Shown one piece after another: positions 1 to 33,329 of a stretch of DNA of 64,000 nt. The translations under genes were made by a program, and so were the position numbers. Under the pieces are notes generated by a model, which worked only from the letters and a program-made list of their open reading frames with translations, was not told the DNA's origin and ran no database searches. The stretch is from Blasia pusilla (lineage: Eukaryota): NCBI GenBank assembly GCA_050084515.1, contig CM114271.1:29946001-30010000 (forward strand), in the 5' to 3' direction. Position 1 is the stretch's first letter. Every line of letters starts with the position of its first letter.

Positions 1-1063
1 GGGAACATTGCTCTCAACACTTGTGTCGTCGATGGCATGTGTTCATCCCTGCGACTTAACGCATCTGGAATGACATTGTCCTTCCCCGGCTTGTGGATTA
101 GCTCCACATTCATCAACGCCAAGGTATCATGCCACCGAAGTTGTTTTGGCGTCACGCGATCCTGGGTCTCAAAATACTTGAGCGATATGTTATCGGTGAA
201 TACTCGAGTCCTGTGAAGTCCCAAATAGTGACGCCACTTCCTCAAGCAATGAACCACCGCAAACAACTCTTTCTCATGAGTAGGCCATCTCCTTTCGGTG
301 TCGGTCAGCTTCTTGCTTTCGTATGCTCAGTCTCCTTTTGCACCAACATTCTTGCAATCGCGAAATCGCTAGCATCCGTGTGCACCTCGAACAATTTGTT
401 CAAACTCCGGCGTTTAAGGCGGTTCTGCGAGAGGATCTCTTTGACTCGATTGAACGCTTTATCCACTTCCTCGGTCCATGTAGTATTGGAAAACTTTGCG
501 GTCCAATCCGTGAGAGGTTTCATTATGCCCGAAAAATTCTTCACGTATGTCCGTAAAAGCGACGGACTCGATGAACCTTCATCATCCCTTCACCGTGGAA
601 GGCGGTTCCCATTCGCAATCGCGCTCACCTTTTCCATGTCTGGACTCACTCCATTTGCACTGACCACATGTCCCAAGAACTTGATCTTCGTCAAACCGAA
701 CTCACTCTTATCCGCATTCGCATACAGCTTGTTCGCCCTAAGTTTCTCAAACACCGTCTTCAAATGTCGAGCGTGCTCCTCTAGTGTTTTCGAATAGATG
801 AGTATGTCATCTATATAGATGATCACAAACTCATCCGTCTCCTTGTGAAAGATGGAGTTCATCAAAGTGGTAAACGTCGGAGGCGCATTACAAAGACCGA
901 AGGCATTACTACAAACTCGAACGAACCGTATCTCGCCCTCTGAGCGGTCTTCTCTACATCCGCCGGCAATCCGAATCGATAATATCCTGATTTCAGGTCA
1001 ATCCGGCTGAAATACTTGGCACCCGACAATCGATCAAAGAGGTCATCCATCCTCGGTAGAGGA
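1..1063 (-). mobile_element. Ty3/Gypsy pol fragment (RT-RNase H) of a conventional family distinct from the DNMT element; frameshifted, cut at the RT YPLP motif
   Basis: ORFs 862-1050 ([23 protein letters not shown]), 590-865 (VIIYIDDILIYSK, KFLGHVVS) and 305-544 (EVHTDASDFAI); bases 1-115 translate on - to IHKPGKDNVIPDALSR (RNase H end). Confidence 0.92.
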
Positions 1064-1339
1064 ATAGGTTGGGAAGAGCCAAAAGGCTCAAACCCTAAAA
1101 ATAGCCCTTCCCTTGGTAACCTGCGCGCACAGGTTACCAGGGGCAGGTGACCTGGTCAACAAGTCACCCGACTGTAAAAGACCTCAACATGAAAGTTGTC
1201 AGAAACAACGTTCCTGACGCAATGGACCTATCCTCAACCTCATCCGACACTATGGGACAAAGTTACACTCAAGATAGTCCGCTGGCTCCTACGCCCTATC
1301 CACGATAGATCTCGGCCTATCGGCTACTCAGATGTGACA
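1064..1339 (-). repeat. Truncated second LTR copy (U3-like part only, stops at the TATA box)
   Basis: About 98% identical to 9930-10205; joins directly to the unrelated RT fragment at 1063. Confidence 0.9.
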
Positions 1340-1555
1340 GTTGTCGTGCGCATACATATCGCTACACAACATACATCGCTCATCACATCTACACCACACA
1401 ACACTGATCTTCCCCACACACGGGTCGATCCACACATGTACAAAAATCAACTCATACATATATATGGAGATCACTCAACCGCCCCCCTAGCTGGCAGTTG
1501 GATCCCCCCAACTCCAGATAGAAAATATCACATCTCTCTGACATGACCTACTACC

Positions 1556-1710
1556 CTATACACATCTCGGACACATCCATCGTCCCGTGGGAACCACATC
1601 AAGAGGGGGGGGGTCAGACATGACATATGCCACCCTCGAGAACAACCATCATATACCAACATGGTGGCTGCACCCCTCGCAGATCCGCACGACATACACC
1701 TCAAGCATGC
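1556..1710 (-). CDS. PHD finger at the polyprotein C-terminus
   Basis: CMSC...MLVYDGCSRGWHMSCLTPPL, then after a shift in the G-run at about 1605-1613 DVVPTGRWMCPRCV*; stop at 1556-1558. Confidence 0.88.
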
Positions 1711-2760
1711 AAGTACTACAGCCAAGCTCGGATCCACCGTCCCATCTACGTTCGGAAGATGACATGGCGCACAATTGCGCACATGATCCTTCCAAACCAT
1801 ACCATCACGTCCCTCCAACATGAGGACTCCGGTCGGTAATACCTCGCGTAGGATCGTACGCCCTGCAGTGACATCTAGCGTCGTGGGTTCCGCCTGCTGT
1901 AAATACACGTAATCTCCAGGATGAAACCTCCTAATCCCTGGACGATAACCTCCTCCACGAATGGTTGCGTACCTCAATGTATCTCTATGCTGGGCAATAG
2001 CTAAGTTCTCAAAGGCCATAGGCATAACTCTACGAAAAACTTCTGCCCTCTGAGAACATGCTTGCACCCACACATTTGGATCATCAAGATCTAACACCTC
2101 CGCCATGTCACGTCGAATCGCTGCAGGTAAATCTGGCTCTCTCCCAAAGAGCAAAAAGTACGGTGAAAATGACGCCAAGGATGCCTACCAACTAAAGCGA
2201 TAACCCATAGCCAACCATGGCAAGCTGTGAGGTCCCACTCCCTCAATCGCCCCCCTTTGCAAGCCATACTTGCAGATCCTCTCTTCACCGTCTGTACCAC
2301 TCTCTCCGCCAATCCATCCGCCTCGGGATGATCTCGGGCGTGGTGCGGTGATCTATCGGCCCCTGATCACACAAGGCCTGAAACTCTCCCGAACTGAACT
2401 CGGTACTGGACGGTCAACACCTCATTTGGTGCACCAAAGTAACTAAGCACACGATCTAGAAATGCATAAGTTGTTCCCTTGCTCGCCTTGTCTGGTAGTG
2501 CCACCAACTCTATCCACTTGGAGAAATGCTCCACCATGACCAACACGTACCTATGATGACGCCCTGTCAATGGCAAAGGTCCCGCAAAGTCTAAACTCCA
2601 CCGATAACCTAAACCCATAATCGGCAAAGGATGTAACTGCGGAGTGGGAGCATTGAAGGATGCTCGCAATCTGTCACATACCATACATCTGGCCACAAAC
2701 AGCTGTACCCCAGTATGCATGCCGTGCCACCAATACTTGAACATGGAGTAAGTTGTAAGT
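1710..2760 (-). CDS. DDE integrase core and C-terminal region (frameshifted)
   Basis: CMVC, WSLDFAGPLP, VMVEHFSKW, AERVVQTVK, SPYFLLFGREP, FHPGDYVYL. Confidence 0.93.
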
Positions 2761-4514
2761 ACGCTTTACTCCGAAATGTCCCAACTCCTCATGGGCATGT
2801 CGCACTACACGTGCTCGCTGGGAAGGATGAGGTACCACTCGTATCCTACCATCTCCCCATATCCACAAAATGTGAGTCCGCTCCCACCTGAACCTCTTGG
2901 CTCTCTGTAGGATCCGATCCCACTCCCTAGCACTCACTGTACTCGCAATGACACCAGTGCGGAAGAAGTCCACAACCTCCACGTCGTCATGGATATCACG
3001 ACCACATGTCGCCTCCTCACTAATCTCCGGATCCAAAGACTCATCATCCAATCCCACCACTGGAGTCATCACCTGTGGCTGACTTGCCATAGTCAACCAA
3101 CAAAGATAGGCAGATGCATGCCAACCGGGCACCATCTCCTCATCACTCTCTCCGTGCCATCGAGCTCCCGTGACGTCTCTCTGACTCAGACATGGCTTAC
3201 GACTCAATCCATCCGCATCCTGGTTCATCCGACCTGGCCTATGAACCACCTCAAACTCATACTCCTGTAGTAATAGAGCCCACATGGCAAGCTTTCCCGT
3301 AAGCTTGTCCAACTCCATCAACCACCTCAACGGCTGATGATCAGTGATAAGTGTGAAAGGGTTGCCAAATAAATAGCACCTAAAATGTGCCACGGCCCAC
3401 ACTGCAGCCAAGCACTCTCCCTCGTAGGAGCTGTACTTCGCCTCTCCAATGTTGTTCGATCGACTCGCGTAAACGAACTCCCTCTCCTTGTCATCCCTCT
3501 GAGTAAGCACTGCTCCTAGACCCAACATGCTCCAATCCGTATGTAACTGGAATGGGCGACCCCTAACCGGTCTCTGTAAAATGGGTGAGGACATCAACCT
3601 GTCCTTGAGCTCCTGAAATGCTCGCTCCTGATCATCTCCCCACAACCACACTTGATCAAGTCTTGTCAACAAGGTCAAAGACTTTGCGATCGCACTAAAA
3701 CCCTTGACATACCGTCGATAGAAGTTCGCCAGTCCAAGAAATGCTCGGACTCGACTCACATCTATAGGGCGTGGAATCTGCGCAATAGCCTCTACCTTCG
3801 TCTGCTGAACGCCTAACCCACTTGGGTATATGGTGTGTCCCAAGTACTCAATCTGCTCCTGAAAGAATCTGCACTTGCCTGGATGTAACTTCAGTCCATG
3901 TAACTGCAATCGTCAAAACACCTCCTCCAAGTGTCGCTCATGCTCCTCAACCGTGGAACTGAAGATAAGAATATCATCTATGTAACATCGTACAAAATCC
4001 AAGCCAGACAAAATCCTATCCATCACTCTCTGAAACTCCGCAGGCGCGTTCTTCAACCCAAATGGTAAGAACCGCCATTGATACAAGCAATCTCTCCGGA
4101 ACCGATCTATCCCCTAGAATCTTTGTCTTCTCCTGTCCTCCAACTTTGATAGGAAGGATGATGATAGCCAAGACGGAGATCTAAATCTGAAGATCTTTGC
4201 ATGCCCTACCGCATCAAAGATCTCCTCAGGAGTAGGCATGGCATACCGATCCGACCTCGTCTGTCGGTTGATAGGACGGTAATCTCGACACATCCGCCTA
4301 TCCGTCCAATTGCCATACATATCCTTCTTTTCCGGCATGACTGTGGCAGATGCATACTCCCTATGTGATAACTCCACAAGTCCTGACTCCTGCTCTGAAT
4401 CAAGGCTCGTTCCATATCAGAATACCTGTAGGGTCGACGAAAGATCGGCGTATCACTAGCCAACTCAATCCGTATCCGGGACCCTTCAAAGATACCCAAG
4501 TCTCTCATAATCAA
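2760..4514 (-). CDS. pol: Reverse transcriptase, RNase H and integrase zinc-binding start (frameshifted)
   Basis: RMCRDYRPIN, YAMPTPEEIFD, CYIDDILIFS (about 3960-3990), IEYLGH, LHTDWS, TDHQPL, NQDADGLSR, HEELGHFG. Confidence 0.95.
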
Positions 4515-4894
4515 GGCAAAACAACCGACATGCCCTCTCGAAACCTATGAACTGCCGTCGCTCTCCTCCTATCAACTTGAGACCTATCATAGGCTCCCAA
4601 GTCTCCATCGTGACCTCACTCGGAGAGGCGCAACCTCGGCTTTGGTTGCTATGTAGCAACCCTAGCCACCTCCGCATAATGACCACTCCACTCGACCTCC
4701 TACACCATGCTCCACATCCGAAAAATGAACATGTGCTACTCTAGCCGCCTTTCGCACTCTCTGCTCGAACGATGTCCAGAAGTCCATGGGTGCCTATCTC
4801 TCCTCGTCTCGCCTGACCAATGCTGTCATGCAGACCTTGTAGGCAGTGGTCCAACTCGTGGACGTGACGGCATGGATGACACTCGCATCCGTCT

Positions 4895-5860
4895 CTACTC
4901 AGCCATACCTAGGCTGACTATCCATATGAGACAGTTGAGGTCCATCGCCAGCCCCAACACCTGTCTCCGTGATGCCTCAGTCATCCCTGGCACCGCCGTA
5001 GTACCGGTAGTGAACCCCATGGCGCGCTCGCGCTCATCTGCTATAGGCTCCTCCAATACTCCGGTCACCTCATCCCAAATCATGCCTGGCCCTCCCTGAT
5101 GAAAGGCATGGGATGCTGGGAAGCTCACCAACGTAGGTAAGGTTGCCCTCAACTCCCCCACCCTATTGGTCGTGGCCAACGGTGGTCTATCATCGCGTGT
5201 CACCACCTGAGATCGACGCCCTGAGTCCAAAATAGCATCCACCGTGAGATGTGGTGCTCTCGGACTCGTGTAGGCTCGACTCAAGTACTCTCGATGGTAT
5301 CAGGTTCGTCCACCACAATCGTGGACGATGGGCACGTGACCCAACTCTCGGTGCATCTAACAACACAGCCGGTCCTAACCAGGACCTCACCTAATGTACA
5401 CTCGTCATCACACGTGCACGAGTATCTCCCAACAATGGCACGTTCTCCAAAATGTACGCTGGAGAACATATCTGACTCTGCTGCAAGTGTCGTACTACTC
5501 GCAGCATCTCCCAAAACATCCCTGACCTCGGATCCTGCAATCCTAATCCTCGGCCAGCTGATGAATGACCCTGACATGGCCATCCAGAAATCACCAAATG
5601 AATGGTGCCAACTCTATCCAGATCTTGCGCCCCCACCAAAGATATGTCGGCGGGTAGCGTATGCTGGTATCCCCGTACTGCAGATACCGACAACAACTCA
5701 TGATACCTCTGGACCAATCTCGCCACATGACGTAATGATACTCGCCGCGCGGTCTCATCTCTCTCCACATAAAGGTACTGATGCACCCGTATGCCTGCCT
5801 GCAATATGGCCCCCAATCCGGTGCTAATCCCTCCGAAGAGATCTAACACCCTAACACCCT
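4895..5860 (-). CDS. C5 cytosine DNA methyltransferase catalytic domain (DNMT3-like), split over three ORFs by frameshifts
   Basis: Motif I VLDLFGGISTG, II YVERD, IV VISGWPCQGHS, VI ILENV (ORF 5391-6185); VIII AHRPRLWWTN (5190-5390); IX ERERAMGF and X RRQVLGLAMD (4895-5284). Confidence 0.93.
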
Positions 5861-6209
5861 CCTCTGGGCACTGCCACACAACAGGTGTGGTATCTAGTGG
5901 GGTCATCGTCTCCACTCCAAGAGCCCGATCGCCACGTGACACTCGCTGCTCGGGATAAAAACATGACTCACGCCTTTGCCTCACGAGGTCGTTGGCACTC
6001 CTCTGTAGCTCTCGAGTCGTACCCCATAATGGTGAAGAGGCATCGCTAACATGGGAAGAGACACCCGCCATGGCCTGTCTCTCCGTGGGACTATCCGCTA
6101 CTGGGACATCCTTCGCATGTGCGTTCCCCTCCAACAACTCTCTTGGCCAGCTAACACTACCTGTGAAAGCCGCCAACGTGGTCACAGATTCGCCTCGTGA
6201 TCGACCACC

Positions 6210-7232
6210 TCATCCCGCAAACTGCACGGGTAACTTACTCATCCGACCGTCACCTGACCGCCATCTTGACCGATAAGCAACGGTCTCCTCCCAGAAGTCA
6301 AGGATGAATCCTAGGGGATATAACACTGTACTCCCCACCAACACATCGTACGACTCAATTGGTGTCGTAATCGCACGTGTGCGCACCATAGCACTATCCG
6401 TCGCATGCTCTGGCTGGACTCTCACAACAATCTCCTGTTGAGTCATATACTGAGTGGGTGATACGCCCCCAATCGAGGTCTGTATCTGGAAGGGACAAGG
6501 CTCAATGTCGGCCTTCCGTAACCCCAACGCTAAACACGCTGCCTTCCCTAACATCAAGGGTTGCGCTCCCAAATCAAGTAGGACGCGCTGTGGGTGGTAT
6601 ACTGTCCCCGTCGGACTAACCAAGCAAAATACTCCAGCTCGGTTATCCATTAACACTACTCCAGGTGTCACCACTGCTTGCTCTATGGCCGGTCGAGCTG
6701 GTATATCTACCAACTTTGCCGCCGCCGCATGCCATGACTCTGTGGGGAACGTCCCAAGCAGCGGCTCTGAGGGCAAGTCCACCACCTCCTCAACTACCTC
6801 TGAACAAGAAACAGTCATCTCTCCACGCTCACACAACGTGGCGGCCAACCGGAACACCTCAGCTGGTCCAACTCCCAACGTCGCCAACTCTAAGGCGGAA
6901 AATAGTGGAGTCTGACTCACTCTAGTGGCCACCTCCAATACTATAGTCGACATTGACTCCACTCGAGCCGGCATAGGAGTTGTCACTCCAACTCCTCGTG
7001 ACGTTGACGTAGGTGCCTGAATTGTAGGCACCGCTGGTCGTCGAGGCACCATCGATGGTGTGTGTAGTGCCTCCGACAATGTGACCGACTGTGGAACCCT
7101 GGCCTGCCGCCCATCGGTCCCCTCTGGTGGGTCAATCTCAACTCCACCTCTCGATGGCTCGGTGCCTCTCAGCAGACCCCGAGTCACCATCGCATTTGCC
7201 TCAACCTGGGCTGCACTACACATGAATCCCAT
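6210..7232 (-). CDS. Retroviral-type aspartic protease region of the polyprotein
   Basis: VLLDLGAQPLML (D-x-G active-site motif, DLG rather than DS/TG) and YDVLVGS motif in ORF 6210-7232. Confidence 0.8.
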   Translation of the reverse strand: MGFMCSAAQVEANAMVTRGLLRGTEPSRGGVEIDPPEGTDGRQARVPQSVTLSEALHTPSMVPRRPAVPTIQAPTSTSRGVGVTTPMPARVESMSTIVLEVATRVSQTPLFSALELATLGVGPAEVFRLAATLCERGEMTVSCSEVVEEVVDLPSEPLLGTFPTESWHAAAAKLVDIPARPAIEQAVVTPGVVLMDNRAGVFCLVSPTGTVYHPQRVLLDLGAQPLMLGKAACLALGLRKADIEPCPFQIQTSIGGVSPTQYMTQQEIVVRVQPEHATDSAMVRTRAITTPIESYDVLVGSTVLYPLGFILDFWEETVAYRSRWRSGDGRMSKLPVQFAG

Positions 7233-7289
7233 ATTGAGAGATCCTCACCCGGGTCAGGGTAAGAGGTACAAACCGAGTCACACTAGCGC

Positions 7290-8860
7290 TCGCGACTCCG
7301 TGCCTTCCCTAAGCCTGCATCATCGTCATGGCAGCAATCCTGCTCCAAGCGATCGATGCGTGAGAGAAGGGCCGGCTCTGGTGCTCTGCTCCATCTCCCT
7401 CCGGCTGGTGGTGGTCCTCTACCACCACGCCCAGGAAGAACTCCCCGACCTCCTCCAGACGACCGCCCCAAGCCCTCGGCCTACCCTGGGACGTGCCCCT
7501 CGGCGAAGGTCAAAACATCTATCCCTAGTGTGACCATATCTGTGGCAATGGTCACACTGGTGTGTGGGTGGGGCCATCCTCGTGGCTCTGCGCAATCGAG
7601 GCGCTTTGGTGGTCCCCTCCCATCTTGTGGGCGATCTCTCTGCCTATGGGCCCCTCCACACGCCCAACAAGACCACATCGGTCCCTATTTGGGCAACATA
7701 TGTAGGTGCGGTCGTTGCCTCATAGGCTCACGGTACCCGCCCGCTCTCTAGGCACACTGCCCGCTCCGTGGTATCTGGTGCTCATTTGTGGCACCGGTGG
7801 GGTCACCGCCGCTCGTGGACCCGTCGACTCTCGAGAAAATCCAGCGGTCACTACCGCTCCTCACTCATGTTGAGCTCAATACGCTCAGAAAACTCAAAGA
7901 CCACCTTCAATGCGGGCTTCATTTGTGTGAATCAAGACCGCATCTCGGACTCTCCTCCGTAGTTCTCGGTCCGAACCCGTACCAATCTTTGGACGATCGC
8001 ACCTCGATCCACCCAAACGTAGCAATGATCAGCCTCCTCATGCGTGTGAATGCCTCTTTCGGACTCTCACCCGATCGTCGCTGAAAATCTGTCAGAGACT
8101 CTTGACTTGTCGGTGCGTATGCCCTAGTAGCTCTTCCCCAACCTGTTGGAAGAACTCCCTTTGTGGGGTTGGCGGGTGGCCCTCTACCACCAGAGGTCTC
8201 GCCACATCGCTTTGTGTCCCGCCCTCCTCTCCATCTAGTCTCCGGGATGTTGGTGTGGGTCTCTCTCCTCTCACAATCCCATCATATGCCTCGCGACCAC
8301 TAGTGGACACATACCCTGGAGCCCAATACATCCTCCAGGCATCGATCTCTACTGAATATAGTGATCAGAACTCCATGTAGTCATCCATCGGAGGACCCTC
8401 CAAGTGCTCGAACAACCCCTTCCATGCCATGAAAGGGTTGAACCGTGTCGGGGTCCGTATCTCCTGGAAGTCGCACCATGTGTCAAACTCTTGGATGAAA
8501 TCATCTAAGTCGATGGTGCCCACTACACCCGAGAAACGACGCATGCCCCGATGGCCCATGTCGTCCATCTCCTGCCAAGTACTACTGTCTCTGTCGGTGA
8601 TCGCCGTCACGGACCGGTGTCGATGATAACGATCCGATCCACGGATGGATGTTGAGGGAGCTCCTCACTGGTAACCCCTCGGTATCTCACTCCACTCCGT
8701 GTCACACCACTACCACTGCTCGCACTACCCCGTTCTTCCGAACCCAGGAAGAACGCCGTGATGACAAACCCTGTCTCACCCGCTCAAGCACTCAGACTCA
8801 CCGAGAGTCTCCCACACGCCTCACTAGCTCACCTATGCTAACGTCAATCCCATGATGACA
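7290..8860 (-). pseudogene. gag: Gag (frameshifted) with CCHC zinc knuckle(s); true start uncertain, possibly near 9120 or further upstream
   Basis: FSGVVGTIDLDDFIQEFDTWC (ORF 8365-8610); CDHCHRYGHTRDRC knuckle at about 7516-7557 (my translation); second degenerate knuckle CWACGGAH at about 7640-7670. Confidence 0.8.
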
Positions 8861-9713
8861 TACTCGGCCTCACGCACGCTCAACACTCGGGCTCACCATG
8901 AGCCTCCCAACTGACTCACCTAACCTAGCGACACACTCTCGGGTCATACACGCGACCCCTACTCGGCAACCGCCGTATATCCACCAACATGCTACACATG
9001 AAAATAATCTACACTCGTCACCATCAGTGCACCCATCTAGCACCAACTACTACCCGATACCCATCACTCTCAATCATACACGACAAGTGCGGGAAAAGGG
9101 ACTCGAATGGGTAACCTGATCACGCCCTCCAACCTGCTATACCGTCAATATGCACTCCTCCACATGATATGACAATCTCTGCCACATAACACTCCCCTCG
9201 ACCAACACGTCGATCCTCCCGTCAACAGATGCGGACAACCCGTCGGCATCATGCACACTGTCCCTCCAGCGTAAACTCTCGCAACGCCCTATGCGCGCCT
9301 CAAAAACATCATGTCACGCCCGTTGTCTAACTTGTCGATCACTCAGCACGTCGACATCCTCCTTGCCCTCACGTTGCCCATGCGCACCGCGTTCGCCGGA
9401 CCGACCTCGTCCGTCCTACCACGTTGGAGAGGGGGGGGGGAAGACTTGGACCGCGGCCCTGTAAGACCCAAACCTGCCCGTTCCTTCTCTCTTGACGCCT
9501 TCACTTGCGTACACCCGACGCCCCACCACACGCTACACTCGGCTGCTGTCCCCCAACAATCCGCACCAGCAAAATCTGAGAAAAATGGACAGCGCTTCCG
9601 CCCACGGCCTTCCGAATAGAAAAAATGACACACAACGTCACACACACGTCTCCAGGGGCTCCCGACCAAGGCAACTCGCTTGCCTACCGCAAACTCTTAA
9701 TTCCCACCCCGAC

Positions 9714-9723
9714 ATCTTTCTCA
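9714..9723 (-). promoter_or_regulatory. Putative self-priming PBS (TGAGAAAGAT), complementary to the predicted transcript 5' end
   Basis: Lies immediately after the LTR-terminal CA; 9713-9726 and 9888-9901 form a perfect 14-bp inverted repeat; conserved at 16505-16518 / 16677-16688. Confidence 0.65.
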
Positions 9724-10205
9724 TGTAAAAATAAAGAGTAGTAAAAACGGCACACCTGGCCTAAAACTCCACTCCTCAATCTACATCGGCATATCGAGCC
9801 TCGTCCACCCTGTGCTATCAAGGAATCCGGACACTAGCACCCTAGTCCTAGCTCACACACATATAAGGGAGGTGCTCCAACGGCCCAACATGAGAAAGAT
9901 GGCTTAGGAAAGCTATCTTCCTCTCTTATATAGGTTGGGAAGAGCCAAAAGGCTCAAACCCAAAAAATAGCCCTTCCCTTGGTAACCTGCGTGCACAGGT
10001 TACCAGGGGCAGGTGACCTGGTCAACAAGTCACCCGGTTGTAAAAGACCTCAACATGAAAGTTGTCACAAACGACGTTCCTGACGCAATGGACCTATCCT
10101 CAACCTCATCCGACACTATGGGACAAAGTTACACTCAAGATAGTCCGCTGGCTCCTACGCCCTATCCACGATAGATCTCGGCCTATCGGCTACTCAGATG
10201 TGACA
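9724..10205 (-). repeat. 5' LTR of subfamily A (about 482 bp, TGTCAC...TTTTTACA)
   Basis: Starts TGT at 10205 and ends ACA at 9724 on - strand; contains TATATAA (9926-9932); same boundaries in the older copy at 16516-16830. Confidence 0.8.
9900..9932 (-). promoter_or_regulatory. LTR core promoter: TATA box and predicted TSS (C|A at 9901/9900)
   Basis: TATATAA at 9932-9926 on - strand, 32 nt upstream of a pyrimidine-purine CA initiator. Confidence 0.6.
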
Positions 10206-14440: not shown

Positions 14441-14529
14441 GAGGTTCGATTTCCCCCTCAGAACCTCACTCCACTCCGTGCAAGCTCTTCCAAACTTCTT
14501 CCAGGGTTCAAGACTCTAGAAGAACGCCT

Positions 14530-17035
14530 TGTTGGAAAACCTACCTCACATGCTCAAGCACTCATACTCACCAAGAGTCTTCCACACTCCTAATGTGTGG
14601 AACACTCTTGGTGAGTCTTCCACACATTAGGAGTGTGAGTCTAATGCTAATTCCTTGATGATATACCCAACCTCATACGCACTCAACACTCGAGTTTACC
14701 CTAAGCCTCCCAATGCAAACTAGCTCACCTAAGCTATTGACAATCTCTTAGGTCATACGTACAACCCCAACTATGGAAAGCACCCTTTATCCACAAACAT
14801 GCTACATGCGCAAGGAATCTACACTCAACACCATTGCTACACCCATCTAGTTAAAGCTCTACTCAATACCCTCAATGATACGAGATAAGTGCGAGAAAAG
14901 AGACTCCACTGGGTAACCTTAATACGGACATCATCACTCTACTACACGATTAGCATTGATTGGCCCATATGGTGTGTCAACCTTGTAGCATGAAAATCTC
15001 CTGAAATAGCATATGAAACCTTCGGTTAATGGTTGTAGACTACCCGTCATCATCAACGCATGTGTCTGCACCACTGACACTCCCTTGGAAAATCTCAGCA
15101 CGGATCACTGATCTCACCTCGAGTTAGCACAATGCAACTAAATCAAACTCTCTTAATGACTATTAGGGCTGGCAAAGCTTGTCACAAATCATAATCCCCG
15201 CTTGAAAACACCAAGTCGCAAAAATATATCCTAAAAATATGGAAAAGCTATCCAACCACGTCAGCCCATCTTACCAAGTATCAACCATGAACATAACCAT
15301 GTAGTAGCTCAATCACGTATGACCTTCAACCACACTCGACTCCCAACCTCATAAGCATGACCACTTTGCAACCTCCCTTCACCGAGTTGAACTTGTTTTG
15401 TGCTTACTGATTAAAGAACCACGTCTGTCCTCTTCCAAATCCTTCTCTTGATCAAGATTGCTTGCATGCCTATGCCTATCCAAGCCCTACACGAGCCCCT
15501 ATGGCTAACCTCTAATTGACCCCTCAATTTTGCCGCCGATGTGTCTCAGCTCTCCTTCCATCGACCTCCACGTGACTCTAGCAGCATGGGGCCTTATGCA
15601 CCTCCCACTACCTTTGGAGCCATAATGGCTCCCTCTTTCCCCTCATGGACCTCCTGCCACAATAGCTACACATCGGCTCTCATGCTCTTTCGCAATCGTG
15701 TACTCTATCCAGCCATTTGTGACCCTCCTTCTGGCACAATCGACACTTCGTACATGCCGCCCTATGCAGCATTGACCCCCTTTCCCTATTTTCTTGGAGC
15801 CATAACGGCTCCTCCTAGCCTCCTTCCAAAATTCGTCTTAGCCTCCTTCAAACTTGATTAAGGCAGTTCTCTTCCCGGATTCCCGGTCACTCAACTCCCT
15901 CCTCCGTTGTTGCTACCATATGTGCAACTCAATCATATGTTTGGGTGCCTCCATCCAGCCCTCATACGCAAGCGCACTCAGTCCTACTTCTTGACTTCCT
16001 ACATACGTTGTACGCACCTTCATAAGACACTAGCCTACTTACTCGTATGGATGTGCGTCCCTCTTTAGTGGACGGCTATCATGCCACTTCTACATCCTTG
16101 TCCGCCTATGCGTCCATCAACTTGCAGGCCAAGGTTGCATATGGAAAAATTTTGTTTTGGTATGTCCATGGGCATGTCTAAACTTTTCCGTCCATGCCCG
16201 TCCTAGGGACTGACTTGTCCAATTTTATGCAACAATGTTGCCGCCCTTAGGCTCGCATCTGCATGAAGCCCTAGTGGATTGCTTCCCTATGAGCTTGCAT
16301 GTCCTCTAACACCGCATGTAGTTGTTTCTTCAACATGTGTTACCCGGTTCACAACTTGTGAGATCCAAACTCGGCTCCATCGTCCTCTCAACCTACTTGG
16401 CCCTTGCAACCTTTGACCTTGCAACACCTAGGCTTCGGCCACTGGCTCTCTTCTTGTAACCTAACCCTAGCCTGACCTAGCCAAAATTTCCCCTTTCCCC
16501 CTCCCATCTTTCTCATGTAAAATTGCAGTAAAAATTGAGTGCAAGGCCAACTTGACTCGGGAATCTACATCGGCATATCAAGTCACATCCACCGTGAGCT
16601 ATGAGGGAATCCATACGCTAGCACCCTAGCTCCTACCACACACAAAGTAGCAAGAGAGATGCTCCAAAGGCCCAATATGAGAAAGATGGCTTGAGAAACC
16701 CATCTCTCCCTCTCTTATAGCCATCCCCATGGTAACCTACGTGGGTAGGTTATCAGGTGACCCTTGACCCTTGACCCTCTATGTCATCAACGTAGTAGAA
16801 GTGTACCTACCGGGTAACTAAGATGTAGCAAGTATCGTGCGCATACATGCTGCTACATAATCCACACCATACAACTGCGATCTTTCCAATACATTGGTAG
16901 ATCAACATAAAAAAAGTACTCTTATGTATATAAATCAAAATCATCCAACCACCCCCTAGCTACCAATTGGATCCCCCTAACTCTAGATAGAAAAGATCAC
17001 CTCTACCTGACATGATCTACTACTCTATACACATT
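14530..17035 (-). mobile_element. Decayed subfamily A tandem remnant: 3' end (16833-17035), LTR (16516-16830), leader and gag start
   Basis: 14530-14925 resembles 8770-9120; 16500-16830 resembles 9710-10205; 16833-17035 resembles 1342-1565. Confidence 0.8.
16130..16237. mobile_element. 108-bp MITE of the hAT-like family
   Basis: TIRs CAAGGTTGCATA / TATGCAACAATG; flanking 8-mers TTGCAGGC / TTGCCGCC (6/8). Confidence 0.7.
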
Positions 17036-17049
17036 TAGCACCGTCAATG

Positions 17050-23500: not shown

Positions 23501-24343
23501 CTTGCCCCATTCAACCCAATTGATATCCTCACATGGTGTTGTAACACTAATGAGCAAACATGAGCAAACACGAAACATCATAAATCTAGTGGAGTCATAT
23601 TACCATGGAAATGTTTCAAAGGCTTATGAGTGTGACATGAGTTACAGAAGCGAGATACGCGCCTTGATGGATGTCTTGGATAATTATGGTTATGACTTGG
23701 AAGAGCATAATCCAACTTCGGATAGACCTTCAGAAGAGTTGAAGTCCCAAAAAAGTTAAAATCCAAGGAACTTGGAATCTAGCTTTGAACTTAATTGAGT
23801 ATTTGGGGTTTTCCATATTTAAGGTCATAATTGTTAGTCCCAATATTTATTTGGGATAAATAATGTAGCGTTGGAAAGCTTGTGAGGAGATAACTCTAAA
23901 CACTAAAGATGTGGAAAGATAAAGAAGTAGAAGTATTGAAATGGGCCCAAAAATGTTGGAATGATAGTTTGGGTTGAAGGCTACTATGTTGTTCGCATAC
24001 ACATGATTGGTACACAACATACATCGTTGTCACCAAACATACACGATCCTATACTAACTCATGGAATATACACAATGAGACGGGAAGTACCAAAATATCT
24101 CCAATCGCCCCCCTAGGTGGTGATTAGGTCCCTCTCACTCCAGGTAGCCATCTGTCACTACCTACCATGACACACATCTCTCGGAGGCTAAGAGAAAAAA
24201 TGTGAGGTGCTCATGTGGCCCCATCGTTAGTTGCCTTCTTGTCATCCATGTCACAAACACAAGTCGGAATCTAGAACTATCTACTCTATGTACATTTGAG
24301 ACACATCCATTGTCCCCGAGGAACCCTAGTGAGAGGTGATGTC

Positions 24344-24883
24344 CATGGTTGCACATGGAAAAAGTCCGTATCTACGGACTTACGAGCCCGCATCCAAGCT
24401 CGCACCCGAGCCCACCCGCATCCCATACCCGTTGTGTGGCTGGCAGCTCGGCCTTCTGAAGCCCACACCTGCCCACGCCCGCCTTGTCGGAGCCCGCACG
24501 TGCCCGCCCTAGCCGGCGCTTGCCCGCCCAGAGCTCGCCCTAGCTTGCGCCTAATCAGCCTTGAGCTGATTGCCCGTGCTAGCCCGCGCTAGCCTGCACA
24601 TGCCGGCCTCGATCCCGCACGTTCTTTCCTGGAGCCCGCGTCTGCCCTCCCTAGCCCGCACCCGATAAGTCTTGAGACCGCACTTGCCCGCCTTGAGCTT
24701 GCACCTACCTGCCCACATCCTGCTCCCAATCATCCCGGAGCGTGCGCTAGCCCACCCTAACCGCCCTCTACACCACGTAACGAGTGCCGGCTTTGTCAGC
24801 CCGGGTCTAGGTGGCCGACTCAGAGGCGGGCTTGCGTGTGGGGCGGGGTACGGGCTCGACAGGTCTGTTTTTGTGCAACCTTG
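24344..24883. mobile_element. 540-bp non-autonomous hAT-like DNA transposon inserted in the PHD-coding sequence
   Basis: TIRs CATGGTTGCACA / TGTGCAACCTTG; 8-bp TSD GTGATGTC / GTGGTGTC; the empty site is visible in the paralog at about 49805. Confidence 0.88.
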
Positions 24884-27800
24884 GTGGTGTCACACATGCC
24901 ACATGCCATCCTCTCGAACATCCATCATAGACTAGCATAGTGTCTGCACCACAGGCAGAACCACACAACATACATCGCAAACCTGCAGGAACTACTACTA
25001 AGCTCGGATCAACTGTACCATCAATGTTAGGAAGGTGACATGGCACACATGCAATTACGCACATGGTCCTTCCAAACCATACCATTGCATCCCTCCAATA
25101 AGAGGACACCACATGGCAAAACCTCATGCACTCTCAAGATAATGCACCTTGCAGTGACATCCAATCTCGTGGGTACCGTCTGCTGCAAGTAGACACAGTC
25201 TCATCGAATAGTCGCATACCTCAACATATCCCCATGTTGTGCAATCGCCAAGTTCTCAAATGCCATGGGTATCACTCAGCAAAACAACTCAGGCCTCTCA
25301 AAACATGTTCGCATGCATACATCACGGTCATCAAGATTCAACACCTGACCAACATCTCGACAAATGGCAGCAAGTAAATCCGGCTCTCGGCCATAAAGCA
25401 GCAAGTACGGTGAGAAAGAGGCTAAGGATGCCTGCCAGCTGAATCTGTACCCCATTGCCAACCACAACAACAGGAGGTCCCAATCTCCTCGGTCATGTCT
25501 CTACAAGCAATACTTGCGTAATCCTCTCTTCACTGTCTGCACAACCCTATATGCTAGTCCATCCGCCTTAGGGTGATATCCTGAAGTGGTGGGGTGGTTG
25601 ATCGACGCCTCATCACACAAGTCTTGAAACTCCCTGCATTTGTACCCTGGTCTGTCAACACCTCAGCTAGTCTGCTGCAATGACTAAAAAATTGACTAGG
25701 AAGGCATACGCTACAACCTCACCTTTGTCACACAATGCAACCAACTCTATCCAGTCCGAGAAGTGGTTGACCATTACCAACACATAAGAACTATGAAGCT
25801 CCGACAAAGGGTAAGGTCATGCAAAATCCAAACTCCATCTATAACCTAAACCCTTGATCGAAAGTGGACGCAAAATTATACTCGAAGCATTGAACAATTC
25901 CCAGACCCGATCACATACCATGCACCTGGCAAAGTGTTGAACGTCAGTCAGCATGCCTTGCTACCAATACTATATCTAGAGCAAATTGTACGTCCACTTC
26001 ACTCCAAAATGACCCAAATCCTCGTGGGCATGGCGCACCAATCGTGCTCTCTATGAAGGATGAGGCACTACACGTACTCTACCATCCTCCCAAACTTGCA
26101 ACACATGTGTCTCCTCTCACCAAAAACGTCTGGCTTGCTGTAGGATTTTATCCCACTCTCTAGCACCCACTATGCTCGTGAGGCTTCCAATACGTAGGTA
26201 CTCCAAAACTTCTCCATCGTCATGAAAATCTCTGCCACATGTCGTCTCCTCACCGGCCTTTGTATCTACGGACTCTCCATCAGACCTTGCCATCAAAGTC
26301 TCCGCAATCTGGCTCTCGATAGCCAACAAGCCCAAATAGGCTTCCGCGTGCCATCCTGGCACCAACTCCTCATCACTCTCTCTATGCCAACGAGCTCCAA
26401 TTGCATTTCGTTGGCTCAGACATGGGTTACGACTTAAACCGTCTGCATCCTAGTTGAGCATCCTAGGTCTATGTGCCACGTGGAAGTCATACTCCTGCAA
26501 TAAAAAATCCCACCTCCCAAGCTTCCCTGTAAGCTTTTCAAACTCCATCAACCACTTTAGTGGTTGATAATCAGTTATGATGGTAAAGGGGTTGCCAAAT
26601 AGATAACACCTGAAATATGCGACAACCCATACTACAGCCAAGCACCCCTCTCATATGACCTATACTTTGACTATGTAGTGTTGTTCGAGCGACTAGCGTA
26701 AGCCACCACAATCTCTCTATCCTCATTGTCATGATGGATGAGCGTGGCCCCAAGCCCCAACATGCTCCAATTTGTATGCAACTGGAAAGGACACCCCTTG
26801 ATCGGTCTCCTCAATATGGGCGCGGATGTCAATCTGTCCTTGAGTAGCTGAAATGCTCTCTCCTATTTTTCCATCTAGTGCAACTCTTGATCCACCTTTG
26901 TTAGCAAGGTTACCGGCTTTGAAATTGAACTAAAACCCTTGATGTACCGTTGATAGAAGTTCGCCAATCCCATGAATGCATGAACTCAACTCACATTTGT
27001 AGGGCGTGGAATGCGTGAAATAGCCTCAAACTTTATTTCCTACACTCAAAGGCCCATTGGATATATTATATAACCCAAGTACTCAATCTAGTCATAGTAG
27101 AACTTGCACTTGCCTGGATGTAGGTTCAACCCATGTAATTGCAATCGTTGAAACTCCTCTTCTAGATGTCGCTCATGCTCCTCAATCGTGGCGCTAAAGA
27201 CTACGAAGTCATCCATATAACACCTAGCAAAATCCAGACCTACCAAGATCCTTTCCATGACCTTGTAAAACTCAGCGAGGGTATTCTCTTACCCAAATGG
27301 TAAGAAACGCCACTGGTACAATCCTTCTTGTAAGGATCGATAACCGAAAATACGGTCTTCTGCTTGTTCTCGAATTTGATAGGCAGCTCATGGTATCCGG
27401 CTCAAAGATGTAACAAATTGAAGACCTTTAGATGCTCAATAACATCAAAGATCTCCTCATGGGTGGGCATGGCATACCTATCCTACTTCGTGTACCGATT
27501 GATAGCTCGGTAATCTCCACACATCCGCCTATCCATCTAGTCGTGATGCAGATTCTTTTTGGCAGATGCATGACCATGGTAGATGCATAATCTCCATGGG
27601 ACATCTCCAATAGTCATGCTCCAACCAAGTCTTGGATCCTACCCTGAATCAGAGCCCTCTCCATATCAATGTACCCGTAGGATCTTCAGAAGATCGATGT
27701 GTCACTCGACAACTCAATGCGGATATTAGGGATCTACATTAAGTTGTCGAGTGACACGCCGATCTTGATTTCAATACGTTGAAGGGTCCAACATTGGACC

Positions 27801-28369
27801 CTTTACCCTACCCAACCCTAAACCCTAAACTTGCGGTGCCATTATGGATCTTGATCTTGATTTGGGTACGTTGAAGAGTCAAACGTTGGACCCTTCAACG
27901 TACCCAAATCATGCATGCTAAATGCAAAAAAACTCCTATAACTCCTAAGGAATAGATATATTTTACCCCGCTCTTAGGGCCCGTATCTGGCTCCCAAGTC
28001 TCCATTGTGACTACGGCAGGACTCTCTGGCGTGTTTATCGTTTTGCTATGGTGGAATAACGTCTCAGACAATAGAACTTGGCTGCTCCCCTCCAGCCAAC
28101 TGCAAACTCTAATCTCCTCCACATGCAGTACCCAAAACCACGCTCCATGTTGTGGCTATTATCTCCCGCCATACCTCCAAAACATCCCAAGAAGTCCAAG
28201 GGTGTCTCTCTTGATCATCCCAAGTGTGTTGATATCCTCACGTCTCGCCCTCAGCCCCAACCTCAACCTTCAAGGTAGGCATGGGGTTCACCAACGTAAC
28301 ACTTGTAACCTGTCGCAATCTCAAACGACGTTGCTAAGCTACTCCTAAGCTAGAAATCCATGTAAATCA

Positions 28370-29300
28370 ATTTAGGTCCGTCGTCTTACCCAAGACATGA
28401 CGTCGTGATGTCCGTCATAGTGATGATATTGTCGTCACTCTTATGGGAAATCCCTTTGCTCACTCTCGCTCATCGGCGTTGGGCTCCACCAGCCGTTATA
28501 CATGCTCATCCCAAACCAAGCCTGACCCGGCCTTCTTAAATGCATAGAAAGCGGGAAAACTCACAAATGTCGGAAAGCCTACCTGTGGCATGCCAATCCT
28601 GTTGACCCCATTCAATGTAGGTCGATCAACGTGTCATACTGCGTGTGAGAAACGACCAAGATCCATAAAAGAATCCACCAACAATTGGGAAGGGCGCTCC
28701 ACTCTTGCATACGCCCTAAGCAAAACCGCATGTGGCACCAAGTTGGTCCACCAAAGACGCGAGCAATGTGCTCGTAAATCTACACTCGCCGCATCCAACA
28801 ACACTTCGTGGCCGATCCATGCGTGCAACTGATGTACACTCGTTACCATGCGGGACCTTGAATCGCCCAAAATCAGCACATTCTCTTGAATGTATGTTGG
28901 AGGATGGGACTGATGCTCTTGCAAGTGTCGCAAGATCCGCATCACCTCCCAAAACAACGTAGATCGAGTTTCAGCCAATCTGCTACCTTGTATAGCACTC
29001 GATTGGTTGTGAGAGGGCCAACAAGCGATGACCAAATCTATGGTCCCTACGCACCCCAAGTCTTCCGCCCCCTGAAATGAAATGTCCCTCATTAGGGAAT
29101 TATGGTACTCTTGGAAAGCGGACGTAGACAACAAGTTGCAAAATGGGAGGCGTAAGTGCGCCACATGGTGAAGTGAAGCGCGCCTCATACCATCATCAAT
29201 CTCAATGTATAGGTATTGCTACACACACACTCTTGCCTGCAAAACAACAACTGAGCATGTGCTAATCCTTCCAAAGAGATCCAACAAGCAAAAATTCTCC
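28370..29300 (-). pseudogene. Degenerate C5 DNA methyltransferase domain of subfamily B
   Basis: LLDLFGRIST (I), VIACWPSH (IV, catalytic Cys replaced), IQENV (VI), AHCSRLWWTN (VIII). Confidence 0.88.
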
Positions 29301-30364
29301 TCTAAGATGCGCCACACGGTCACGGTGTATCCAAAGGGCTCTCCCCCTCTCCCCCTCGTCTGAAGATGACACAAAAGGAGGTCGAGGCAGTCCCTCACGT
29401 GAAGACCCTCGAAACCTCGTGCCACTCCGCGTAAACCCTCTAGAGCTTCTCTCATGTCCACCACCTCGCCTCTCAAAGTCACGAAGGGATGCCGTGATGA
29501 ACCTCGTGCCCCTCTCATGCGATCACTCTCAATCTCACGAGTTATACCTCAATCACTCAACTCAAACATGCGGCACTCAATCTACACTCCCTCACTAAGA
29601 CAAGCCCTGTGCGGCAACTAGCGATGTGGTGCGGAAAATCGGCTACTATCCTATCATCCCATCGACAAGACATACTCTTAATTGTGGACATCCCACACAA
29701 GTCTATGTCCGAGAAACCCATCCATCAACGATGCTCTCAGCATCTGCACGAAACGCAATATCCAGATAATTGCCCAATACTCGGAAATCCCTAACACGTG
29801 CACGACAAAAGACCAAAATGGGTAACCTGACAATAAGGTTGATGTCACTCCTCAACAACTGCAAATCACAACCCCAACTAGGTCTTAAAGAAAAACTCCT
29901 CCAAATAGCACGTCATACTCCCCTAGTACAGACGATGCTCAAATCTCCTTCATGTGAGGTACGGATCTAGCGGTACGGTACGGCACTCATGGTACGAAAT
30001 GACTAAAAATGGCATGGCACTTAGGAATGCGGTGTAGCACTCAACGGCATACCCTCCCCAACTGAAAAACATGATTAGCTCCCCAGTGATGGTGCGGATC
30101 CGCGATCGAGACGGTGTGGTGTGATGTGGCCACAAGTGGCACAACGCGGCAATCGGCAGTGCATTGCGGCTACGGGGGTCACGGCATGGTACTTGATTGT
30201 TGTTGAGCAACTACAACCTGAAGATAGAGCAAAGAAAAAGAAAAGGCAAACCCATCATCCCAAAATGTCCCATGCCCTCGGTTATGACGAAAACTGCCAA
30301 GACGGTGGCGGCCATAACAAATACGTGGCGGTGGCTCAAATCTCCAAAGCAACGGCATTTGACG

Positions 30365-31150
30365 CAAGGATCCATATAGACCGTTTCCTAAGTCCGCGGA
30401 CATGGGCTTGTCCGCGGACTTATGTCCGTCCTATGGACTTATGTGTCCATGTGGGCCTAGGTACCTAGGGCCCGCACCCGAGCCCGCCCGCAGCGCGCAC
30501 CCATTGTGTGGCTCGTAGCTCGGCCTTGGGTGGGCTCAATGTGGGCCCTAGGTGTGGGCTTAAGGCCCGCAAAGTTTGGTCTGGTAAACCAATGTTTGAT
30601 CCAAATTTTTGCGGGTCCTCAAGCCCGCATTTTCCCGCCCCTACCCTGGACTTGTCCGCCCTTGCCCGCCCGGACCATGCACTTGCCCGCCCAAAGCTTG
30701 CGCTTGCTTGCGCCCGCCTAGAGCTTGTGCTTGCTTGAGCCTGTGCCTAGCCCTAGCCCAATCAGCTCTCAGTCTACGCCCACCCTAGCCCACGCGTGCC
30801 CGCCTAGAGCCTGTACCTGCCCGCCCAGAGCCCACCCTAGCCTACGTCGAATTAGCCTCGAGCTCGTGCCTGCCCTCCCTATTTGCAGGTGCCCGCCTCA
30901 AGCGTGCACCTGACCGCCCAAAGCCCGCACTTGCCCACCGTGAGCTCGCGTGTGCCCGTGCCCAATCAGCCTTAAGCCCGCGCTTGCCTGCTCAGAGCCC
31001 GCACTTGCCCGCCTTGAGCCTGCATCTGCATGTCGAGAGCCTGTGCCCAATCAATCATGAGCCCGCGCGTGCCCGCCCTAGCTGGCGCCTAGACCCCAAA
31101 CTGCCCGCCAAGGGCTGACGGAGCCTGCACCCGTTGCGTGCCACTCACGG
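30365..31150. mobile_element. GC-rich relative of the hAT-like element with many GCCCG(C) motifs, inside the subfamily B leader
   Basis: Internal similarity to 24385-24720; degenerate left TIR CAAGGATCCATATAGAC; right end not resolved. Confidence 0.6.
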
Positions 31151-32475
31151 ATCAGGACAGACGGAGTAGCAAAGAAAGGAGCACGGTTGAACGGAGTCCA
31201 ATCAAGTTGACGTCATGACAGCTTTGTATCGCCATTGGTTGTAGTGGAAAATCAGGACCCAACGATAAGCAGCTCGCAGCAACCACGTGGTAGGTTGGGT
31301 CGATATGGACACGGTAGCAGGCGAGAGGTGTCGAAACCGTGTATCGACGACAGCGGCTGGAGAAAAAACATTGGCACAAGAAGGATAGTCAGTGGCTGCG
31401 AACAAAGATGAAGACGCACAAATTTTGGGCCGCCAAGCGTCGATGCGGCAATCCTTAACTCTCAGCGGAAAGCGCGGTACCCAAGCTACGGCAAGCGAGC
31501 AGAATGTCTGGACTAGGCGATAACAGGGCCAGGGCGCCTAAATACCACCTACAATCCAAGGCTAGAACAAGGTCCGTTGATTGCGAACAAGGGCCCCTAA
31601 AAATTGACGTTATAGGCTAAATTGAGTTGACTTGCATGTGGTCAGCAAGGAATGCAGTTTATCCCCACAAATTCACTAAATCGATCGCTAGAATCCCGAA
31701 TTTTCATTCAAAATTTCCCACTACTCCACAATAAGTGGGTCAGCTCCCTCCAAATTTATTTTTCAATGATCTTCTACTCCCAGGTATAAATTTTCTTGTC
31801 CGATCCACTCAAAATAAAAAGGTGTTTACTTTTGTACCCCTCACTCAAGGAGTTACCCAAGAAAATTGGAAGTTTCACTCACACAGTAGCGCACTGGCTA
31901 TGGCAGCTTGCTCAATCAACCACAACTTTGTGCTCCAAACTCAAAATTTTGCATTGTTTCCTCAACGGCGTACACAGCTTCTTGATCTATGACCTTGTCA
32001 AATTGATTTCTTCATTTACACTTCCAATAAAAACAGACAGGGACTGTCATGCTGCCCTTCAATCTGCACTCCTACAAAAAATTTGGCAGCGCTTCCGCAT
32101 TGATTCCTCCCAATGAAAACTTCATGCCTATAAAATCAGAAATGAGAGAGGTACATGGTACTCTCGAGAGCACCCGCATGGGGAAATCCACCCCCATACT
32201 AAAGGCATGTGGAAGCGCCTTGGGTTGCGCTTCCACGTGCCATTCTCATGTACGAAAATCAGCAATGAAAACAACAAACTTGAGTGGCTCTTGATCTGGT
32301 GAGCACTCCCATGAGCTGCTAAATGGGAAACACCGTCCCCAAAATGCACATCAGCAAGTAACCACTCACCTCCTCCATTGAAACTCTGTCACTCTTTGCA
32401 TTCTCTCTTTGTAAAATCGATCCAATCTCTCTCAACAACTCACACCAAGCTCTCAAGGGTTTGCACTCTCTCTCA

Positions 32476-32918
32476 TGTCAAACCAAACTCATTCTCCTAA
32501 TGAGAGGCTTGGGTTACACACACAAGGCAAGAAGGACCATAGCTCCGCCGCCTCATGCCCAAAGTTTCAACAAATAGATAATGAACTCTGAAGCTCTCTC
32601 TCTTGGAGGTATACCCCCTTCCCTCTCCCAAGCCCTCTCCACGGTAATCTATGCTCGCACGTCACCTCCTTGGCTCTTGACCTATTGTAGCGGGTCAACG
32701 GACACTTCCCAAAGTGTAAAGTCAACTATACCAAAAATGATAACTTACTTGAAATAGTAAGTTCCTCAATATGGCTCCAAATGAGCCGAAAGGAAGGGGA
32801 AACTTGCTCTCAGGTTACCGTGCCCTTAGCAGATCATCCTCGATCGCTTGAGGCTGTCCTCTTGTATCTTTGAAGGAGCTCTACTAGATCTTGCCGATCT
32901 ATCCTAAAAGACGTGCGA
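32476..32918 (-). repeat. LTR of subfamily B (ends TTTGACA, followed by TGAGAGAGAG)
   Basis: Homologous to 51944-52384, 49404-49529 (internally deleted) and, inverted, 33330-33721. Confidence 0.75.
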
Positions 32919-33329
32919 ATGTCGTGTTGAAGTTCTATAGAACTCTATCAAGGGGAAGGATCTTCAAAGGAGTTTGGAATATGAGCCTTTTATTTGGGAA
33001 CCATGGGGGTTGACCACAGATACATGATGGATTGTATCAATTCTTTTCTAGCAAATGGAGAATTTCTATGCAATGAGTTGCAAGATATTGGAGAGAGAGC
33101 CTAGAGGGTAAAGAATGACTTCCATAGAATATGCTAACCTAAAATTGAAAATTTTCCTTGGTTTGAGGTTTCTTGAAACGTATTTGAGGAACTTATTATT
33201 TTGAGAATGGTAACTTTCCATTTATGGAATGTAACATTTCATCCACTATTTCAAGTTTATGACAAAGGATGTGACTTGCGTGCACAAGTCACCAAAGAGA
33301 TAGAGATCATATTCTCTGCTTGTTGAACC

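Follow-up and report, generated by a model that had tools for sequence, protein, structure and literature searches.

A GACA-NN-TGTC junction in Blasia pusilla as the likely inner seam of split direct repeats in bryophyte Gypsy-DNMT3 retrotransposons

The retrotransposons in the window

The window analysed here is a stretch of 64,000 nt from Blasia pusilla (assembly GCA_050084515.1, contig CM114271.1, positions 29,946,001 to 30,010,000), and it contains copies of a group of Gypsy retrotransposons. All sequence readings given below are of the - strand. Best preserved among them is e1 (- strand, 10205 to 1064). Its order is A-B-C-AC-A', in which A is a promoter-bearing repeat, B holds the leader and the genes, C is a conserved shorter segment, AC is a 2-nt spacer and A' is a cut-off second A. 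The features at this end of the window are as follows.

9727..10205, - strand: A1 of e1, 479 nt, promoter-bearing; starts TGTCACATC (TGTCAC...) at 10205 and ends ..CTCTTTATTTTT at 9727
1481..9726, - strand: B of e1, leader and genes; terminates in the G-run CTAGGGGGGC (1490..1481)
6209..5394, - strand: DNMT domain of e1 (this and the next three by Pfam and tblastn)
3912..2677, - strand: RNase H domain of e1
2765..2370, - strand: DDE integrase domain of e1
2184..1531, - strand: PHD domain of e1
1342..1480, - strand: C1 of e1, 139 nt, GT-rich, from GGTTGAGTG... to ..GCGCACGACA; starts just past the G-run
1340..1341, - strand: spacer of e1, 2 nt (AC), at the centre of the GACA-NN-TGTC palindrome
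1064..1339, - strand: A', the second A of e1, 276 nt, cut at the equivalent of 9930 and joined to foreign sequence
1..1063, - strand: RT/RNase H piece from another Gypsy lineage (Pfam RVT_1, RT_RNaseH), adjoining the cut-off A'

Pfam searches, together with tblastn using Marchantia and Sphagnum proteins, find in e1 a gag-like N-terminus, a C5 DNMT, RT, RNase H, a zinc-binding and DDE integrase and a C-terminal PHD finger. The Pol domains follow one another on the - strand as RVT_1, RT_RNaseH, Integrase_H2C2 and rve (Pfam), which is the Ty3/Gypsy order. The methyltransferase (PF00145, at 6209..5394 and again at 29218..28637) is encoded upstream of RT and reads in the same direction. Twelve of twelve PDB matches to the DNMT ORF are to DNMT3A, all of them weak (E 2.5e-4 to 9e-4), and judging by these the enzyme is probably a DNMT3-like C5 methyltransferase carried inside the polyprotein. 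A tyrosine recombinase (Phage_integrase, PF00589) is absent from the 82 window ORFs of at least 90 aa, and also from seven Marchantia and Sphagnum relatives and further ORFs at E values up to 5 (82 + 14 + 8 proteins scanned). The nearest named proteins come from liverworts and Sphagnum (Marchantia polymorpha, Calypogeia fissa, Sphagnum); their identity is 44-70% across the DNMT ORF and 76% across the PHD region. Two word-based protein searches returned no Klebsormidium sequence, and scans of viral contigs and of genome contigs with the PHD ORF gave no relatives in either.

The flank upstream of A1 in e1 is unrelated to the element. At the other end, the first 276 nt of A1 (10205..9930) and A' (1339..1064) are 97.8% identical, and A' then gives way to the foreign RT fragment, which shares no more than 27-36% of its residues with the Marchantia Gypsy-DNMT proteins P0013 and P0022. 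Five RNA molecules (run X21) end at 9927 within A1, which is weak evidence that transcription starts there. The break in A' falls 3 nt from these RNA ends, and either a chimeric cDNA or a deletion could account for the fusion to a different Gypsy RT.

Head to head with the left end of e1 lies an inverted, 5'-truncated relative (10206-10298 and 11532-14439, both on the + strand), whose leader-like part begins directly at 10206 and is 71-73% identical to the e1 leader. Heavy rearrangement, with fragments inverted or deleted, marks the region 10206-18022. Over positions 1-10400, most of the changes that separate e1 from related contigs are transitions; in X1 these are T>C 100, C>T 87, A>G 71 and G>A 67, against 6-19 for each transversion type. 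Several of the differences between repeat copies are CG to TG/CA, as expected for methylated repeats. Elsewhere in the window, an ORF at 45437-45721 (- strand) has a weak match to type II intron maturases (PF01348, E 2e-4) and may be an organelle-derived insert.

The GACA-NN-TGTC junction

Segment C, which is about 115-140 nt long, is present in five copies in the window, and each of them terminates in ..CACGACA. A nhmmer profile built from the five copies matches exactly those five in the window. Besides e1, the copies lie in the following elements.

16519..16949, - strand: J2 tandem; C 16949..16833, spacer CT 16832-16831, A 16830..16519, then leader-like B
49206..52387, - strand: complete, internally deleted element with the full layout A1-B-C1-AT-A2-C2
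52382..51871, - strand: A1 of this element, with B from 51870
49641..49532, - strand: C1 of this element, followed by its spacer at 49531-49530
49529..49333, - strand: A2 of this element
49332..49206, - strand: C2 of this element, ending ..GTACGACA
52388..53092, - strand: upstream flank of the 52382 element, interior of a DNMT element, H; matches Marchantia P0003 residues ~650-923
48729..49205, - strand: downstream flank of 49206, where H resumes at P0003 residues ~925-1091
23987..32925, - strand: A-B-C element; ACGACA-TT 32925..32918, A1 32917..32412, then B, G-run and C
29338..28181, - strand: DNMT of the A-B-C element
25133..24810, - strand: PHD of the A-B-C element
24116..24106, - strand: G-run of the A-B-C element
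24105..23987, - strand: C of the A-B-C element

In three of the five copies, the end of C is followed by a 2-nt spacer and by TGTCA.., the start of the promoter-bearing segment A; the other two (23987 and 49206) continue into unrelated DNA. The five C ends read:

Junction 1: 1342 ..GCGCACGACA / spacer AC (1341-1340) / TGTCACATC.. from 1339; in a wider reading ..GATATGTATGCGCACGACA / AC / TGTCACATCTGAG..
Junction J2: 16833 ..GCGCACGATA / CT / TGCTACATC..
Junction 3: 49532 ..ACGCACGACA / AT / TGTCATGTC..
C end at 23987: ..GCGAACAACA / TAGTAGCC, no TGTCA following
C end at 49206: ..GCGTACGACA / GTGCGC, no TGTCA following

A preliminary description of this DNA had pointed to the threefold recurrence of the junction with different spacers, and both the homologous flanks and the five-copy profile confirm it. 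The spacers that it gave, GT, AG and AT, are the + strand spellings and read AC, CT and AT on the strand of the element. The motif GACANNTGTC occurs four times in the 64 kb, against about one expected, and the two exact matches at junctions are embedded in more than 100 nt of homologous flank. Therefore, the junction is no chance motif but reflects homology among members of a single retrotransposon group. Upstream of the 5' A of the 32917 element lies a fourth site that resembles the junction, ..CACGACA TT CGCACGTC... The consensus of the seam is GCGCACGACA-NN-TGTCAYRYC, with the spacer constant at 2 nt and free in sequence (AC, CT, AT, TT, GT and CA). In this it resembles an integrase att site of the form CA-NN-TG, as had been suggested.

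It also holds, as described previously, that no purine tract abuts the TGTC, and a canonical 3' LTR with an abutting polypurine tract (PPT) is absent; a conserved G-run, CTAGGGGGGCG (1490-1481 in e1), sits 139 nt upstream. Formation of a hairpin at the palindrome was considered and set aside, since the fold energies are not better than those of shuffled sequences (z -1.0, 0.05, 0.39).

Segment C (1342-1480 and its homologues) is rich in conserved TGTA/TGTG motifs, and CGATGTATGTTGTGTA is identical in three diverged copies. The conservation of these motifs hints at a functional role, for example in polyadenylation or as a packaging signal.

A split-direct-repeat layout

The preliminary description stated that two of the three downstream repeats continue into a primer site and leader, and read these two as heads of tandem units. 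Only one, that at 16830, does so; it has deletions relative to e1, and its leader-like B, ACATGAGAAAGATG, starts at 16518. The A at 1339 breaks off after 276 nt, where the RT of another Gypsy begins, and the A at 49529 is followed by a second C. The C end at 49206, which had been counted with 23987 as a copy stopping at GACA, is a real end but no separate copy: it lies 324 nt downstream of the junction at 49530 and is the right terminus of the same element, of which it is the second C. In this element C1 and C2 are 82% identical over 118 nt and A1 and A2 94% over 140 nt, and A2 lacks about 310 nt found in A1. The coding sequence of H runs up to 52427 and restarts just past 49206, and thus A1 to C2 (52382..49206) is one discrete nested insertion. 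Since the element carries its own second A, its layout is that of the split direct repeats of DIRS-type elements.

Outside the window, metagenome contigs scanned with the PHD ORF yielded nine loci. One, L009, proved unrelated and was rejected. In L001 the order is G-run, C1 (2392-2497, ..CACGACA), GT, A (2500-2962, TGTCATGAC..), C2 (2963-3069) and flank, with C1 and C2 97.3% identical over 111 nt. The distant family L006/L005 (38% protein identity) has the same order, with the A1 tail followed by B, and so has L008/L007, likewise a more distant family. Thus, the full layout A1-B-C1-NN-A2-C2 is found in the window element 52382..49206 and in three metagenome families, each in the A-coding-B-A-B order of DIRS-like elements. 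L002 ends at GACA with no A, and L004 reads GACA-CA-TGTCATGC and then passes into unrelated DNA. Past these 7-8 nt of A, the L004 continuation (478-700) is 75% identical to an inverted stretch of L008 (1540-1693); perhaps this is one more small repeat, either inserted at the junction or cutting it short.

The boundaries of the segments are exact. Six right ends were examined: four are A-C followed by flank (49206, L001, L006, L008), two are B-C followed by flank (23987, L002), none is a canonical LTR, and all six stop at the ..ACA of C. At the left, all five 5' copies of A continue into B, never into C. Integrated copies thus begin with TGTC and end with GACA, as had been proposed. In all five families (e1, 49206/23987, L001, L006, L008) C2 starts at the base after the G-run ..GGGC(G), as in e1, where the C boundary reads GGGGGGCG/GTTGAG vs TTATTTTT/GTTGAG. 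The end of A is the base before the conserved leader, ACATGAGAAAGATG in e1 and the 16830 copy and CAAAGAGAGAATG in the other family.

Several simpler arrangements were examined and rejected. An apparent match in L006 raised the possibility of a hidden C after the 5' A, but in all five families the start of B resembles C no more than shuffled sequences do. An LTR made of A-C with canonical ends is ruled out because C never follows a 5' A. Finally, the second A-C could have been an independent insertion with a 2-bp target duplication; in all four cases, however, the spacer and the 2 nt past C2 differ (GT/GG, AT/GT, AA/CA, GC/AA).

It is likely, then, that the junction is the inner seam C1/A2 of a split-direct-repeat layout, A1-B(genes)-C1-NN-A2-C2, in bryophyte Gypsy-DNMT3 retrotransposons; the architecture and the family assignment, taken jointly, we regard as very likely. 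Two identical terminal LTRs, with a primer site after the 5' LTR and a PPT abutting the 3' LTR, are not what these copies show: at the left they have nothing but A, at the right they finish in C-NN-A-C or C, and the G-run is 139 nt from TGTC. Nor is any of the four intact right ends that bear an A2 canonical, and in this the doubts of the preliminary description about ordinary two-LTR copies have held up. Could the elements nevertheless be ordinary two-LTR Gypsy elements, with A or C-NN-A as the LTR, that were truncated and rearranged in a transposon graveyard? The heavy rearrangement of 10206-18022, the two A copies of e1 at 97.8% identity and the truncation of its A' would all fit. Random truncation, however, would not leave all five left ends without C and all six right ends at the end of C; the identical layout recurs on independent metagenome contigs from other samples; and one copy sits cleanly nested in another element, with A1 and C2 as its limits. 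We therefore consider degraded two-LTR elements highly improbable.

A/C joints in genomic contigs and RNA

Contigs and RNA reads from the same species, when aligned to e1, also show A joined directly to C, with B absent, as joints from 1465-1480 to 9727:

X1, contigs: at least 24 contigs among the joints listed; short side 20-22 nt, weak singly
X2, contigs: at least 2 contigs among the joints listed; short sides 27 and 48 nt
X20, RNA: at least 6 reads among the joints listed; short sides 45 and 61 nt
X21, RNA: at least 7 reads among the joints listed; short sides 39 and 73 nt

In the listed joints the A side is constant at 9727, and the variable letters are diverged versions of the start of C. 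Splicing was rejected as their origin, since the skipped stretch lacks GT..AG ends on the strand of the element and the joint is also present in DNA contigs. The RNA reads over e1 have their first mate mainly on the + strand, which is the sense orientation if the library is of the usual stranded type. Over A (9717-10063) there is RNA in both orientations (first mate + 13.8 and 15.8, first mate - 7.0 and 5.0), and over the coding region almost only one orientation is seen.

These joints bear on the unit that the preliminary description had put forward, namely a single-LTR element A-B-C (TGTC..GACA) derived from a one-LTR circle, in which any A that comes after a C would open the next unit of a tandem, and the redundancy of the ends would come from such tandems. 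The palindrome termini of all copies agree with such a unit, and so do the two bare A-B-C right ends (23987 and L002) and the one true tandem, at 16831, whose A runs into a leader. But four of the six right ends have a second A before the last C, and there the order is A-C rather than A-B; bare A-B-C accounts for two of the six, and 16831 is the only true tandem among the junctions. Moreover, the A/C joint is exact at the G-run and leader boundaries in five families and recurs in e1-family contigs and RNA. Separate internal deletions of a second unit would not repeat the same exact joint, and the single-LTR unit is, accordingly, unlikely. The accompanying idea of a circle opened at an att-like junction fares better in part: a circular or concatemeric intermediate is the simplest route to the observed layout, even though the one-LTR unit is not borne out.

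Possible origin of the layout

The G-run is directly before C, and the leader is directly after A. From these positions we infer that the G-run serves as polypurine tract and that minus-strand priming takes place where B begins, in which case the repeat generated by reverse transcription would be C-NN-A. U3 would then consist of C-NN and the first part of A, and the A/C joint would correspond to a U5/U3 joint such as occurs in a two-LTR circle. The genomic order A-B-C-NN-A-C would be a circular permutation of [C-NN-A]-B-[C-NN-A] from which one spacer has been lost.

It is tempting to propose that a two-LTR circle, or an equivalent concatemer, is cut open by the element's own DDE integrase at a single internal CA-NN-TG palindrome. 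If both strands were nicked, in staggered fashion, behind their CA, the result would be 3'-OH CA ends with 2-nt 5' overhangs, the normal substrate of an integrase. After insertion, transcription from A1 through B-C1-NN-A2 would rebuild the full genomic RNA, with C2 left over. Bare A-B-C copies could be products of one-LTR circles or C1xC2 deletions, and tandems such as that at 16831 could result from A1xA2 exchange. We put forward the circle-opening step tentatively. Equally speculative is the wider proposition of a lineage in which a closed two-LTR circle, ordinarily a dead end, is the obligatory integration substrate and the integrase cuts a palindrome internal to U3 rather than the cDNA ends. 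If it were true, every provirus would be a circular permutation that keeps the U5/U3 joint, and the lineage would have reached DIRS-type split repeats by a convergent, recombinase-free route.

Several observations sit uneasily with this route. At the start of B we saw no tRNA-type primer site (TGG-type), and the window holds no tRNA genes. A circle with two palindromes should also give the other permutation, A-C-NN-A-B-C, which is absent among the five left ends. A DDE integrase is expected to leave a clean target duplication of 4-6 bp. The termini of old copies look ragged: ACGACA-TT stands before the 32917 element, the first 9 nt of A are missing from the 52382 copy, C2 of L001 is followed by GGTTG, and C of L004 by CA and TGTCATGC before unrelated DNA. 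The sole flank repeats found are in two old copies, measure 7-10 bp and lie 5-8 nt away from the TGTC/GACA termini, one of 9-10 bp at 52388-52396 / 49191-49200 (TTTGTTCCA / CTTGTTTCCA) and one of 7 bp at 32926-32932 / 23973-23979 (CTTCAAC on both sides).

Both the raggedness, which is within about 10 nt of the palindrome, and the long, offset flank duplications would fit with a layout that arose during reverse transcription without a circle, and with insertion by repair instead of by integrase. The minus strand would start near the 3' end of the RNA, at the end of C2 or C1 (C is TGTA-rich and could be the polyadenylation region), and a later template switch from the 5' end of the RNA to the internal A would be followed by a stop near the palindrome. 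An RNA ending at C1 or at C2 would also explain both C-ended forms. On the other hand, the exact match of the C2 start to the G-run and of the A2 end to the leader is what ends defined by a PPT and a primer predict, not what a template switch predicts. In addition, the integrase has been retained, and C1 and C2 are 97.3% identical in the young L001 although two RNA-carried C copies could diverge over cycles. An origin in reverse transcription alone is thus improbable, and the opening of a circle at the palindrome, tentative as it is, remains the simplest route.

Relation to known elements

Retroviral integrase can nick the palindromic LTR-LTR junction of two-LTR circles after each CA and so produce integration-competent ends, which is a minor route. 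In retroviruses that palindrome is the ligated U5/U3 joint, whereas in the window elements it would lie inside U3 and the A/C joint survives integration. With canonical Ty3/Gypsy elements the copies in the window share the RT-RNase H-integrase order, the gag-like N-terminus, ends of the form TG..CA and, close to the 3' repeat, a G-rich tract; they differ in having no two identical LTRs, in the distance of 139 nt between the purine tract and the apparent LTR start and in the extra C after A.

Retroelements with a tyrosine recombinase have been regarded as the typical bearers of split direct repeats, whose origin was ascribed to a circle inserted by the recombinase. The split-repeat layout needs no recombinase, as a Gypsy lineage with a DDE integrase has the same one. 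In the DIRS order, PAT, Ngaro and VIPER are defined by split direct repeats A1-B1-A2-B2 (PMC4157794). The topology A1 - genes - B1 A2 B2 is thus shared with the window elements, and many DIRS elements also carry a methyltransferase (PMC4157794). According to the same source, however, DIRS elements have a tyrosine recombinase, no DDE integrase and a methyltransferase of the adenine type, whereas the window elements have rve, no Phage_integrase among the proteins scanned and what appears to be a C5 DNMT3-like enzyme. They agree with DIRS elements in their split direct repeats, and not in having a tyrosine recombinase in place of a DDE integrase.

The closest parallel is KnitGypsy-Dnmt3 of Klebsormidium nitens (de Mendoza et al. 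2018), which the Fig. 4c legend describes as having a DIRS repeat structure, defined as A-coding-B-A-B, with Gypsy domains (PMC5890265). As far as the available text goes, it shares with the window elements a Gypsy polyprotein with an embedded DNMT3-like methyltransferase, the A-coding-B-A-B order and a streptophyte host (PMC5890265). The likeness is one of description: KnitGypsy-Dnmt3 is from a charophyte, whereas the relatives of the window elements are from bryophytes (Marchantia, Calypogeia, Sphagnum). The accessible parts of that paper do not mention a PHD finger, an inner CA-NN-TG palindrome, PPT and leader boundaries or a mechanism (PMC5890265). A 2026 preprint mentions 'streptophytes (Gypsy-DNMT3)', and a full-text literature search, within the text that it covered, found no account of the layout for bryophytes, and none of the palindrome or of a mechanism. 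A DIRS-like layout with Gypsy domains is thus already published for the algal KnitGypsy-Dnmt3, and the window elements are new members of a little-studied kind. To this the boundary evidence and the integrase-palindrome hypothesis add a means of testing how the layout comes about.

There are also practical consequences. LTR finders that expect identical LTRs and an abutting PPT would mis-annotate or miss such bryophyte elements, and dating by LTR pairs must rely on A1/A2 or C1/C2. Because they have DNMT3-like and PHD domains and matching RNA reads from the same species, these elements are candidates for the study of self-methylating transposons in land plants.
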